Shown piece by piece: positions 3,980 through 56,466 of a stretch of DNA of 64,000 nt. Position 1 is the first letter of the stretch; each line of letters starts with the position of its first letter. This DNA is from Roseovarius sp. (GTDB taxonomy: Bacteria; Pseudomonadota; Alphaproteobacteria; Rhodobacterales; Rhodobacteraceae). The position numbers and the translations under genes are program-made. The DNA lies in the NCBI GenBank assembly GCA_043555235.1, contig CP121311.1, positions 1,128,857-1,192,856 on the forward strand, given 5' to 3'. The notes under the pieces are model-generated. The model saw nothing but the letters and a program-made list of their open reading frames with translations. It was not told the origin of the DNA and did no database searches.

Positions 3980-4001
3980 GTAGGGTGGGCTTCAGCCCAC
4001 C
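3980..4001 (+). repeat. GTAG-family REP
   Basis: GTAG GGTGGGC TTCA GCCCACC; same stem as the REPs flanking the RAYT; overlaps the def paralog stop codon. Confidence 0.85.
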
Positions 4002-4486
4002 TTCCTTGCCCGGCGCAACAGCATGTCGCGCTTTACCTTGCTCAGACGGTCAAAATACATGCGCCCTGCCAGATGGTCGATCTGGTGCTGCACGCTTGTG
4101 GCCCAAAGCCCGACGAAATCGCGCTCTTCGATCTCGTCCGCCGCGTTCACGAACCGCACCGTCACCGCCCTTGGCCGGCTGATCCTGGCATGAACGCCAG
4201 GCAGGTTCGGGCTTGCCTCGTCATGCTCACGCATCTGGACCGAGGCGTGCAGGATCTCGGGGTTGGCCATGCGCACCGCCTGCCCGCGCGTGTCCGATGC
4301 ATCCACCACCGCCAGCCGCAACATCACGCCGATCTGCGGCGCGGCCAGCCCCACACCCGGCATCGCCTCCATCGTGTCGATCATGTCAGCCCAGGTGGCG
4401 CGGATCTCGTCGGTGATCCCGGCCACGTCTTCCGCCTGGGTCCGCAACCGCCCGTCCGGCCAGCGCAGGCAGGGCCGCACCGCCAT
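3992..4486 (-). CDS. def: Peptide deformylase-like protein with degenerate active site
   Basis: GVGLAAPQIG present, but EGCLS reads EASPN and HExxH reads HQIDH. Confidence 0.9.
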   Translation of the reverse strand: MAVRPCLRWPDGRLRTQAEDVAGITDEIRATWADMIDTMEAMPGVGLAAPQIGVMLRLAVVDASDTRGQAVRMANPEILHASVQMREHDEASPNLPGVHARISRPRAVTVRFVNAADEIEERDFVGLWATSVQHQIDHLAGRMYFDRLSKVKRDMLLRRARKVG

Positions 4487-30841: not shown

Positions 30842-31259
30842 TCAGTTCGAACGCAGTCCGATGTCGTCGCCCATCGCTACCATATCAGCCAAAAGCTTGG
30901 CCGCATCATCGACAGGTCCAGGCTCGTTCTGGAACGTTTCCTGCGCCTTTGTCAGCTTTGCCGTAGCTTCGTCGACCAGTTCCTTGAACTGCTCTTGGCT
31001 CAGTTCATCGCGCGGGATAGCACGCTCAGCCAAGACAGAGATTGAACCGGGGTTGATTTCGGCAAAGCCGCCGGTGACGGCATAGACTGTCTCACCCTGG
31101 GCGCCGCTGACCGTGACAAGGCCCGGCCGCAACGTGGTGATAAGCGGCGAATGGTCGGGCATCGCCGTAAGGTCACCCTCGGCACCGGGGATCTTGACCT
31201 CCCGCGCCTCTACCGACGCCAACAGGCGCTCGGGGCTTACCAGATCGAATTGCAATGTC

Positions 31260-31267
<8 letters not shown>
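30842..31267 (-). CDS. atpC: F1 ATP synthase epsilon subunit
   Basis: [29 protein letters not shown]. Confidence 0.96.
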
Positions 31268-32806
<1,539 letters not shown>

Positions 32807-53408: not shown

Positions 53409-53864
53409 TCAGTCCTCTGGTTCGCCCCATCTGTGCTTGAGATGGGTCATGATCTGGTCGCGCGTCTGGCGGTAGGCGTTGAGCTTGGCCTCACGCGTCT
53501 CGCCAAGCCCCGTGGGGTCCATGATCGGCCAATAGACCACTTCGAGGTGGAAGACGCGGGTCAGCTCAAGCGCCCGGCGCTGGCTGGCAGGGCTGAGGGC
53601 CACAACCAGATCGAAAGAGCTGAGATCGTCACCCCATTCCTCCATCTCGTCAAAGCTGCGCGCGCGGTGGCGCGACAGCTCCACCCCCATTTCCTCGCAG
53701 ACGGCGATGGAGAACCCGTCGATATCCATGTCGCCCATCACCCCGACGGATTGCACATACGTGTCTGCGCCATAGAGCTTTTTCATGATCCCCTCGGCCA
53801 TGGGCGAGCGGACGGCGTTGTGATCACAACAAAAGAGCACCGATTGCGGCAGGGGCTCGGCCAT
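53409..53864 (-). CDS. Low-molecular-weight phosphatase / ArsC-like protein
   Basis: VLFCCDHNAVRSPMAEG P-loop; DPTG. Confidence 0.9.
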   Translation of the reverse strand: MAEPLPQSVLFCCDHNAVRSPMAEGIMKKLYGADTYVQSVGVMGDMDIDGFSIAVCEEMGVELSRHRARSFDEMEEWGDDLSSFDLVVALSPASQRRALELTRVFHLEVVYWPIMDPTGLGETREAKLNAYRQTRDQIMTHLKHRWGEPED

Positions 53865-53869
53865 GCGCC

Positions 53870-54349
53870 TCAGCTCCCGAAATGCAGCACGCAGATCAGC
53901 GTGAAAAGCCGACGCGCGGTGTCGTTGTCGACCTTCGCCTTACCCTCCAGCCGCTCTTCGAGCACGCGCGCGCCCTCGTTGTGGATGCCGCGCCGAGCCA
54001 TGTCAATGGTCTCGATCTGGCTGGGGGGCATGTTCTTCACGGCATCGAAATAGCTCTCACAGATGGTCCAGTAATCCTTGACCACCTGCCGGAAGGGCGA
54101 CAGCGACAGATGAAACTCCGCCGCGGGCTGGTCATCCTCGGTGCGGATATCGAAAACGAGGCGCTTCTCGCGGATCGACAGACCCACGCGGTAGGGGCCA
54201 TCGGGCGTGATTCGATCATCGCGCGGCGGCAGGGAAAACGAGTTTTCCTCGATCAGGTCGAACATCGCGACCTTGCGCTCCTGCTCGATCTCGGGCGTGG
54301 GGGGCGGCAGGTTGGCGTCGTCAAGTTCGATATGGCAAATGCGGCTCAT
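53870..54349 (-). CDS. UPF0262 family protein
   Basis: EQERKVAMFDL, IETIDMARRGIHNEG, ARRLFTLICVLH. Confidence 0.92.
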   Translation of the reverse strand: MSRICHIELDDANLPPPTPEIEQERKVAMFDLIEENSFSLPPRDDRITPDGPYRVGLSIREKRLVFDIRTEDDQPAAEFHLSLSPFRQVVKDYWTICESYFDAVKNMPPSQIETIDMARRGIHNEGARVLEERLEGKAKVDNDTARRLFTLICVLHFGS

Positions 54350-54431
54350 GGGGCTGTCTCTTGCATGGTCCTGCCAACCCCTAGCGCAGAGCGTGCAGCC
54401 GGGCAATCCGGCAGATGCCGGATCGTGCCAA

Positions 54432-54457
54432 AGGGTGGGCAATTTTGCCCACCCTAC
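54432..54457 (-). repeat. GTAG REP at the RAYT 3' end
   Basis: Minus strand GTAG GGTGGGC AAAATT GCCCACC; its TAG is the RAYT stop codon. Confidence 0.9.
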
Positions 54458-54987
54458 TCGCCAAAGCGCCCGTCCTGCTGGCCGCCGGTCCAGTCCGGCG
54501 GGACAAGGCCCTTGCCGATCTCGCGATGAATGGAGGAATGCGGCCAGTCGGCGGGCCGCGGGACCAGCCCGTGCCTGACGGGATTGCCCCAGCAAACGGA
54601 CACGTGCCGCCGATAATCCGCATCATCGCGGATCACATGTTCCCAGAACCGGCGCTGCCAGATGCCGCATTCGCGCTTGGAGACCTTGCTGGCGGGCAGG
54701 TGTAACGGGCGATGCGCCCGGTCCACGGCGCGTGAAAACCGTGCCTTTATCTTGCGCCAGCGTTCCGAATAGGCGCTGTCGCCCAATGGCAGGGTCCAGA
54801 CCGCATGGAGGTGATCGGGCAGCACGACAATCGCCTCGCAGCGCACCGGCATGTCACGGATCGTGGCGGCATAGGCGGCCCGCAGATCATGGATGTGGCT
54901 GATCAACAGATCAGATCCACGGTCCTGAAGGGCCAGAGTGAAAAAATACGTGGCACCGGGCGGGCGCAGGCGGCGATAATTTGGCAT
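54454..54987 (-). CDS. REP-associated tyrosine transposase (RAYT, HUH/Y1 family)
   Basis: MPNYRR, TYFFT, VLPDHLH (HUH), WQRRFWEHVIRD, NPVRHG; flanked by inverted REPs. Confidence 0.93.
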   Translation of the reverse strand: MPNYRRLRPPGATYFFTLALQDRGSDLLISHIHDLRAAYAATIRDMPVRCEAIVVLPDHLHAVWTLPLGDSAYSERWRKIKARFSRAVDRAHRPLHLPASKVSKRECGIWQRRFWEHVIRDDADYRRHVSVCWGNPVRHGLVPRPADWPHSSIHREIGKGLVPPDWTGGQQDGRFGE

Positions 54988-55031
54988 GTCGCCACCATAG
55001 CGGACCGATGATTAACGCCAGGCTAACGCGT

Positions 55032-55055
55032 GTAGGGTGGGCAATCCTGCCCACC
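55032..55055 (+). repeat. GTAG REP upstream of the RAYT
   Basis: GTAG GGTGGGC AATCCT GCCCACC. Confidence 0.9.
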
Positions 55056-55062
55056 TTGCGCC

Positions 55063-56367
55063 TTACCCTTCGTTGAGACGGTTGAGCCGTGCACGCACGC
55101 TCAGCCCATGCGCCTCCAGGCTTTCGGAAATCGCCAGCGTTTCCGCCGCCGGGCCGATCGCCTTGAGCGCCTCGGGCGTCATCCGCGCCATCGTCGTCTT
55201 CTTCATGAAATCCAGCACGTTGAGCCCGCTGGAAAACCGCGCAGAGCGCGCCGTGGGCAGCACATGGTTCGGCCCGCCCACATAGTCGCCGATGGCCTCT
55301 GGCGTCCATGCCCCCAGGAACATCGCGCCCGCATGGTGGATCTTCGCCGCCAACCCTTCGGCATCCGCAACGCACAGTTCCAGATGTTCCGCTGCGATCC
55401 GGTTGGCCAGATCCGCCGCGACCTCAAGATCCGGCACGGTTATCACCGCGCCGAAATCACGCCAGCTTGCGCCCGCGATCTCGCGCCGTTCCAGCGTGGT
55501 CAGGTTGCGCTCGATGGCGACCTGCACCGCCTTGCCCATCGCCGCATCATCAGTGATCAGGATGGCCTGCGCGCTTTCGTCATGTTCGGCCTGGCTGAGC
55601 ATATCCAGTGCGATCCATTCGGGATCGTTATCACGATCCGCGATCACCAGAATTTCGGACGGGCCAGCGATCATGTCGATGCCCACCCGCCCAAAGACGC
55701 GGCGCTTGGCCGCCGCCACATAGGCGTTGCCCGGCCCGGTGATCTTGTCCACCGGCGGGATGGTCTCTGTCCCGTAGGCCAGCGCCGCGATGGCCTGTGC
55801 GCCGCCTACACGGTAGATCTCGTCAACCCCCGCAAGCCTTGCGGCCAGCAGGACCAGCGGATTGGCCACGCCACCCGGCGTCGGCACGGTAATGGCCAGC
55901 CGTTCCACCCCGGCGACCTTGGCGGGGACCGCGTTCATCAGCACCGACGACGGGTAGGACGCCAGCCCGCCCGGCACGTAAAGCCCGGCCGCGCCCACTG
56001 CCGACCAGCGCCAGCCAAGCACAGCGCCCGTGTCCTCTGTCCAACTGGCATCTTCGGGCAATTGCCGCTCGTGGTAATCCCGGATGCGCGCCGCGGCCAA
56101 TTCCAGCGCCTCGCGCTCATGCGCGGGCACCTGAGCGATCAGCGCATCGACCTCGGCCACGGAAAACCGCAGCGTCTCTGGTGTCAGCGTCAGGCGGTCG
56201 AACCGTTCCGTCAGCTCGATCAGCGCCGCATCGCCGCGCTTGCGCACATCCGAGATGATCGCGGCCACGGCCTCGTCCACATCCGGGCTGTCCTCGCGCT
56301 TGGCGCTCAACAGGGCGCGGAACCGCGCATCGAACTCGGGATCGGTGGCATCAAGAAAGACTGGCAT
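55063..56367 (-). CDS. hisD: Histidinol dehydrogenase
   Basis: GLYVPGG, GPGNAYVAAAK, IDMIAGPSE, SQAEHD, AEHLEL, GGPNHVLPT. Confidence 0.97.
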   Translation of the reverse strand: MPVFLDATDPEFDARFRALLSAKREDSPDVDEAVAAIISDVRKRGDAALIELTERFDRLTLTPETLRFSVAEVDALIAQVPAHEREALELAAARIRDYHERQLPEDASWTEDTGAVLGWRWSAVGAAGLYVPGGLASYPSSVLMNAVPAKVAGVERLAITVPTPGGVANPLVLLAARLAGVDEIYRVGGAQAIAALAYGTETIPPVDKITGPGNAYVAAAKRRVFGRVGIDMIAGPSEILVIADRDNDPEWIALDMLSQAEHDESAQAILITDDAAMGKAVQVAIERNLTTLERREIAGASWRDFGAVITVPDLEVAADLANRIAAEHLELCVADAEGLAAKIHHAGAMFLGAWTPEAIGDYVGGPNHVLPTARSARFSSGLNVLDFMKKTTMARMTPEALKAIGPAAETLAISESLEAHGLSVRARLNRLNEG

Positions 56368-56466
56368 CGCGAACACTCCTTGCTGAGCCGTCCTTTAAAT
56401 CGTCCCGCGCGCGGCCTCAACCCGGCGCGCGGCGCGGCAAAATGGGCACCTGGCCCGCCTGCGGCC

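Follow-up and report, generated by a model that had tools for sequence, protein, structure and literature searches.

RAYTs, the REP-associated tyrosine transposases, are textbook domesticated prokaryotic transposases, and the reason for their persistence is unsettled, with REP copying on one side and another role of the protein at REPs on the other. Y1-HUH enzymes cleave ssDNA via a 5'-phosphotyrosine intermediate. The window analysed here, a stretch of 64,000 nucleotides that begins at C1:1128857 of a Roseovarius sp. genome, contains a locus at which this question comes down to a single residue: a first-pass annotation had described a complete RAYT-REP locus whose expected catalytic tyrosine reads valine, and had proposed a homolog alignment, a genome-wide count of REPs and RAYTs and a dN/dS comparison, which we carried out. 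We ask whether such a gene is dead and decaying, kept for something other than cutting, or still active through another nucleophile.

The gene (54454..54987, minus strand) encodes 177 residues in an unbroken ORF and has hisD (55063..56376, minus strand) on one side and a UPF0262 gene on the other, all three being co-directional; the hisD stop lies at 55063 and the RAYT start at 54987. Its product matches the NCBIfam model NF047646, 'REP-associated tyrosine transposase', scoring 168.9 bits where the model's cut-off is 80, over model positions 1-146. The sole PDB match, obtained with phmmer at an E-value of 4.7e-42, is E. coli TnpA-REP (4ER8), to which the protein aligns in two stretches that are collinear over the entire length. 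A Pfam search found no domain in the protein, and Y1_Tnp did not match it at E <= 0.1, as is also the case for most close homologs. Across the whole genome (one contig, 3.50 Mb) there is one NF047646 match, the RAYT gene itself, and there are zero matches to PF01797 (Y1_Tnp); the RAYT gene is the genome's sole Y1-HUH gene. With no further NF047646 match and no Y1_Tnp match, there is no substitute enzyme, and the possibility that another Y1 protein supplies the activity in trans is ruled out. An Rfam search detected no RNA family in 53800-55300, and a search for a sigma-70-like promoter found none; three terminator-like matches all fall inside the ORF, none of them at the REPs.

Two REP hairpins frame the ORF. 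The 5' REP, GTAGGGTGGGCAATCCTGCCCACC, occupies 55032..55055 on the plus strand between the hisD stop and the RAYT start, with its GTAG on the plus strand, and folds as ssDNA at -11.8 kcal/mol (z -4.24), far better than shuffles. The 3' REP, GTAGGGTGGGCAAAATTGCCCACCC, occupies 54433..54457 on the minus strand (read from 54457 to 54433), consists of GTAG and a 9-10-bp perfect hairpin, and folds equally far better than shuffles at -12.0 kcal/mol (z -4.19). The two hairpins point in opposite directions, and the earlier description of a gene flanked by inverted GTAG REPs is accurate; only the start given for the locus, 54432, has to be moved, by one base, to the start of the hairpin at 54433. The claim that the RAYT-REP locus is complete is borne out: the gene and its GTAG-tagged REPs form a genuine single-copy REPtron of classical layout.

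In E. coli TnpA-REP, Y115 is the catalytic tyrosine, and H59, H61, N119, H123 and E161 are the metal ligands (PMC3479197). Counting residues along the chain in the 4ER8 alignment places Y115 opposite V131 of the window RAYT, with E. coli ..HHVDYIYINPVKHG paired by phmmer against ..RHVSVCWGNPVRHG and, over a longer aligned stretch, ...DYRHHVDYIYINPVKHG against ...DYRRHVSVCWGNPVRHG. The Y1 helix of the RAYT reads RRHVSVCWGNPVRHG, and codon 131 (54595..54597, minus strand; AAC on the plus strand) is GTT. The valine reported by the first-pass annotation thus sits at the catalytic position, and the HUH motif, which it had given as an intact DHLH, is indeed unchanged: H59-L60-H61 (PDHLHA; CAC CTC CAT, 54805..54813, minus strand) matches E. 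coli H59/M60/H61. All five metal ligands are present as H59, H61, N135, H139 and the terminal E177. The alignment with the 119 other best database homologs confirms the Tyr column, where 117 have Y and the other two F, and reveals no intact catalytic Tyr displaced elsewhere; H59 is invariant among these homologs, H61 is found in 118 of them, and N135 and H139 are almost invariant.

Single substitutions at this tyrosine, Y115F in E. coli TnpA-REP and Y130F in S. maltophilia TnpA-REP, leave no cleavage (PMC8266576). Because these mutants of two RAYTs fail to cleave, the Val131 RAYT is predicted to be cleavage-dead and very probably cannot cut REPs or transfer strands; having no catalytic Tyr, it would be equivalent to the non-cleaving S. 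maltophilia laboratory mutant. The protein should still fold and bind metal and REP hairpins, and DNA binding is likely intact, a prediction that rests on the unchanged metal site and on the family-invariant residues, which apart from the catalytic Tyr are all conserved.

The valine is a property of a lineage. A protein cluster at 90% identity contains nine variants, four with Val (~99% identity) and five with Tyr (88-90%), and an 81% relative, which serves as outgroup, also has Tyr. We assembled a Val sample of 17 contigs from NCBI MAGs, JGI, ENA and Logan which, with the window, gives 18 sequences and nine DNA haplotypes. Codon 131 is GTT in 18/18 independent assemblies and 9/9 haplotypes of this ~99% clade; it is TAT in the five sister variants and in the 81% outgroup, so two adjacent bases have changed. 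Among the sampled members of the ~99% clade the Val substitution is fixed, with no exception. An error of sequencing or assembly at this codon is next to impossible, since GTT recurs in 18 independent assemblies from separate projects and assemblers and across nine haplotypes, and the change moreover spans two adjacent bases.

The surroundings of the gene are shared between the clades. The order hisD-RAYT-UPF0262-LMWPc-SnoaL-GNAT is equal in the Val and Tyr clades as far as the contigs extend, and both flanking REPs are kept in the two clades. The 3' REP is also kept in the 81% outgroup (L046), which was seen on the hisD side and through matching intergenic sequence up to the start of the downstream gene. 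In all clades examined, the TAG of the GTAG of the 3' REP (54454-54457) is the RAYT stop codon. The hisD-UPF0262 site of this RAYT, which is single-copy in its genome, is shared by the Val clade, the Tyr clade and three congeners (G012, G069 and G145). Within the Val clade dS is at most 0.023 and the RAYT has eight polymorphic sites, marking the allele as young. In this clade hisD, next door, has more synonymous polymorphism per synonymous site (32/341) than the RAYT itself (5/129); the numbers are small, and the difference might reflect a RAYT that coalesced more recently. One contig with a Val-type RAYT (L036; ENA ERZ27241906 k141_98134) is a mosaic: the segment with hyp254, hisD and the RAYT matches the window at 99% identity, but identity drops to about 65-80% from a point within the 5' part of the UPF0262 gene onwards, and SnoaL is absent, reflecting either recombination beside the RAYT locus or a chimeric metagenome assembly.

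Beyond the locus, REPs of the form GTAG-GGTGGGCA-loop-TGCCCACC are dispersed in the genome. A genome-wide count gives 30 GTAG-tagged hairpins with perfect 8-10-bp stems, alongside one RAYT. The sequence GTAGGGTGGGC occurs 30 times, compared with four for its reversed control, and the 10-mer tag GTAGGGTGGG 44 times, compared with ten. Stem variants such as GGTGGGT/ACCCACC and GGTGTGC/GCACACC pair via changes on both sides. Eight of the 30 REPs are fully palindromic and tagged on both sides (GTAG-stem-loop-stem-CTAC; for example C1:620465-620491, 998581-998607 and 1360840-1360867) and therefore present a GTAG hairpin on both strands, the one-hairpin equivalent of a REPIN. The window itself holds the two singlet REPs noted in the first-pass annotation at 3980 and 31328, and both have the same stem and a variable loop, as described there, and lie between co-directional ORFs. 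The first, GTAGGGTGGGCTTCAGCCCACC (3980..4001, plus strand), is placed between two minus-strand ORFs; its loop holds the TGA stop of the ORF at 3992..4486 (minus strand), and its stem encodes the last residues of that ORF. The second, GTAGGGTGGGCGTTACGCCCACC (31328..31350, plus strand), lies between the ORFs at 31358..32782 and 30842..31267, both on the minus strand.

RAYT loss by deletion or frameshift has been described as being followed by slow decay of REPs and REPINs (bioRxiv 10.1101/2021.07.10.451892). Neither shrinkage of the REP population nor loss of stem pairing was seen in the Val genome: 30/30 stems are perfect, and its 44 tags compare with 22-41 in congeners that have a Tyr RAYT and share the tag, these being more distant congeners, as the 147 genus genomes include none from the Tyr sister clade. 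The count in G012, in which the RAYT is frameshifted, is 21. The absence of shrinkage means either that the inactivation is recent on the timescale of REP decay or that REP persistence needs no cleavage. As to where the REPs lie, 11 of the 30 hairpins crowd into a 254-kb stretch that flanks the RAYT on a single side (C1:930000-1184000; post hoc binomial p = 4e-6) and 22 of the 30 fall in the GC-skew half from 0.01 to 1.92 Mb; in G069, REP tags crowd similarly near the RAYT at 894 kb. Such crowding could be due to local spread or to shared ancestry of the sites.

Set beside known systems, the locus shows likenesses to two RAYT groups. The protein has its HUH motif at the same residue numbers as E. 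coli TnpA-REP (the RAYT YafM, 4ER8, 'Group 2' of Bertels), keeps the N, H and C-terminal Glu ligands and aligns with it collinearly at full length; like the E. coli REPtron, the gene is single-copy, is enclosed by inverted REPs with 5' GTAG and has cognate REPs dispersed in the genome. It departs from the E. coli enzyme in having Val for the catalytic Tyr. Its REPs, in contrast to the long imperfect REPs of E. coli, are short perfect 8-10-bp hairpins with loops of 2-4 nt, are mostly singlets or palindromic GTAG...CTAC units rather than BIMEs, and form a small population of about 30, unlike the E. coli system. This REP architecture matches that of the S. maltophilia Group 3 REPtron, in which GTAG is joined to an 8-bp perfect palindrome with a 3-nt loop (PMC8266576). 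A difference from the S. maltophilia system is that the protein can be aligned over its full length, C-terminal tail included, with the E. coli enzyme of Group 2. Group 2 is marked by a C-terminal extension of ~20 residues ending in the Glu ligand and Group 3 by short perfect REPs; the alignment of the protein runs on to E. coli E161, while its REPs are of the Group 3 type, so that the two traits point to different groups.

Natural inactivation of RAYTs has precedents in a frameshift in N. gonorrhoeae and in deletions in E. coli and P. chlororaphis (bioRxiv 10.1101/2021.07.10.451892). The Val allele resembles these in being a lineage-wide loss of function, here a predicted one, in a vertically inherited single-copy gene, and differs from them in that the lesion is a missense change at the nucleophile, with the ORF otherwise whole and the REPs not shrunk. 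The family model match, the HUH motif with its metal ligands, the inverted GTAG REPs, the dispersed REPs and the single-copy, vertically inherited site are all found at this locus; what departs from the family is the Tyr of the Y-x3-NP helix, in whose place V131 stands. Since descent and architecture are those of a RAYT-REP system and the catalytic Tyr is missing, we class the protein as a nucleophile-less RAYT.

The assignment to Roseovarius, a probable one, agrees with a same-genus genome that encodes a protein 100% identical to one named from unclassified Roseovarius. Among 147 species genomes of the genus, a RAYT occupies the hisD-UPF0262 site only in a few, G012, G069 and G145, and the best other RAYTs in these genomes are 67-71% identical to that of the window. 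The G012 ortholog (L020:1501-1984; G012:C2:285856-286354) keeps the Tyr (AHVAYCWGNP) and is frameshifted between residues ~86 and ~97; barring an error of assembly, this is a second, independent lesion in the RAYT lineage. With most congeners lacking a RAYT at the site and that of G012 frameshifted, the locus is dispensable in relatives. The G069 (L140:1489-2007) and G145 (L142:1501-2034) orthologs are intact at the hisD-UPF0262 site. The G069 ORF holds an intact in-frame REP (..GGAVGRTAHPTA.., that is, GGTGGGCAGAACTGCCCACCCTAC), the G145 protein has a similar segment (..GRIAHPTA..), a likeness at the protein level, and in the window RAYT the internal REP appears decayed (..AVDRAHRPLH..). Both of these orthologs lack the C-terminal tail and the Glu ligand because they end early, in a REP (..YLSR*).

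A separate group of RAYT-like paralogs has lost the tyrosine altogether. They occur in eight same-genus genomes (L147-L154; for example L147:1501-2010 and L151:1501-2004), with intact ORFs in 8/8; the Tyr column reads H in seven and Q in one, the HUH motif is kept, DP stands in place of NP and the proteins have lost the IWQRRFWEH block. Across these eight species dS reaches 0.8 and the median dN/dS is 0.31. Inspection of L028/G008 and L029/G018 showed the paralog adjoining mnmA at both loci, and in three loci checked (L147, L151 and L152) no flanking hairpins were found. A Tyr-less paralog retrieved 120 database clusters, 37 of which have no Tyr (H, F, L, R, A and others instead) and mostly have DP. 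We know of no description of such a Tyr-less RAYT-like clade. The window RAYT shares with these proteins, in Roseovarius and other Rhodobacterales, a RAYT derivation, a kept HUH motif, a missing nucleophile and a kept ORF. The paralogs are only ~40% identical to it and, unlike it, have DP for NP and neither the IWQRRFWEH block nor flanking hairpins; their Tyr loss is old, being conserved across eight species, whereas that of the window RAYT is recent and confined to a single residue. Their maintenance in eight species indicates that nucleophile-less RAYT derivatives can persist for long in this group, and it raises the prior for the window RAYT being kept as a binding protein, without proving it for that gene.

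Substitution patterns bear on the same point. Between the Val and Tyr clades dS is about 0.45-0.53 and dN about 0.06-0.085, giving an omega of 0.11-0.16. When changes are polarised with the 81% outgroup, the Val branch has 12 synonymous and six non-synonymous codon changes and the Tyr branch 17 and five (Fisher p = 0.50); the overall 6 N : 12 S of the Val branch departs from neutrality with p = 0.0002. Apart from Y131V, the replacements on the Val branch are P68L, S82A, A122D, A143P and A167T, all in variable columns. Codon 131 thus took two changes against five in the other 176 codons, with a probability of about 0.03-0.04 if the changes were sequential and neutral; a single dinucleotide mutation from TA to GT could explain the double change and would be silent on timing. 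Within the Val clade, polymorphism is 3 N : 5 S in the RAYT and 3 N : 32 S in the neighbouring hisD. The RAYT figure compares with 22 N : 41 S fixed relative to the Tyr clade (MK-like Fisher p = 1.0), and its N share of 3/8 sites is below the neutral expectation (p = 0.024). N:S is therefore alike before and after the substitution, and selection on the Val RAYT is not visibly relaxed, on just eight polymorphic sites. These patterns, together with the undiminished REP count and the perfect stems, fit a retained function as well as or better than decay, yet they weigh little, since the change may have happened only very recently.

We lean towards reading the Val RAYT as a young loss-of-function allele heading to loss, with considerable room for doubt. 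A change from TAT to GTT has replaced the nucleophilic Tyr by Val in a species-level lineage; RAYT-driven REP copying would have stopped in that lineage, and the allele would be the first step of RAYT loss, taken before the ORF or the REP population decays. A very young dead allele, with eight polymorphic sites and dS of at most 0.023, would equally show an unbroken ORF. A less probable reading, though one with substantial points in its favour, is that the protein is retained by selection as a non-cutting binder of REP hairpins, as ssDNA or RNA, with possible roles in REP protection, in replication-fork or transcript functions or in repression of its own locus. Apart from the catalytic Tyr, the residues invariant in the family are unchanged, as are the metal ligands, the REP population is undiminished, and the two changes in codon 131 of an otherwise constrained gene suggest that only that site was freed, although TA to GT was possibly one dinucleotide mutation. 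The similar N:S before and after the substitution and the low N share within the clade also point to retention, but they come from only eight segregating sites, and at dS 0.02-0.04 chance alone would be expected to leave a 534-bp ORF unbroken; the departure of the Val branch from neutrality points the same way, yet a branch-wide N:S mostly reflects the time preceding the change. The genus provides a precedent in the Tyr-less RAYT-like paralog that is intact in eight species, which is, however, a different and much-diverged gene without flanking REPs, and the frameshift in G012 shows a near relative to be able to dispense with the locus.

It is highly improbable that the enzyme is still active through another nucleophile, be it Tyr125 of DYRRH, as the first-pass annotation had suggested, Ser130, Cys132 or water. 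The HUH-metal site is complete and the REP family looks healthy, as such an activity would lead one to expect, and Cys132 adjoins the lost Tyr and is invariant in the Rhodobacterales subgroup. Against this, Cys132 co-occurs with Tyr131 in the 117 active-looking homologs and is Ile in E. coli, while column 130 is mostly A or E, with S in only 4/119, and thus holds no conserved nucleophile. Tyr125 is ruled out as a conserved nucleophile: among the 119 homologs its column is Y in 73, F in 33, W in five, L in four, H in two and M in two, a hydrophobic column rather than a conserved Tyr, which makes the DYRRH proposal unlikely. The Val branch gained no new Tyr at any position, and to our knowledge no Y1-HUH enzyme works without its tyrosine. 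The single Tyr-to-Phe mutants that abolish cleavage in two RAYTs (PMC8266576) likewise leave the suggestion unsupported. The reading of a young, dying allele and that of a retained binder thus share a protein that is predicted not to cut, and they part over whether it is constrained.

Inactivated RAYTs as such are already known, but a clean natural allele whose sister clade still has Tyr makes a useful test case. In this natural, lineage-wide separation-of-function allele, of a kind that would otherwise have to be engineered, the nucleophile alone has been removed and the fold, the metal site and the REPs have been left, and the sister clade with Tyr at the same site and the long-kept Tyr-less clade in the genus are built-in comparisons. 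If the Val protein is unconstrained, it marks a well-dated first step of RAYT loss, the outcome that we favour. If it is constrained, a catalysis-independent RAYT function becomes directly testable; a retained Val131 binder might in that case have set out on the course that the Tyr-less RAYT-like clade of its congeners has completed, a link that we put forward as doubtful. Were the protein indeed kept as a binder, the host benefit that maintains RAYTs could come from the binding of hairpins and not from the mobilisation of REPs, and HUH transposases would have been turned repeatedly into non-catalytic DNA-binding proteins in the Rhodobacterales.
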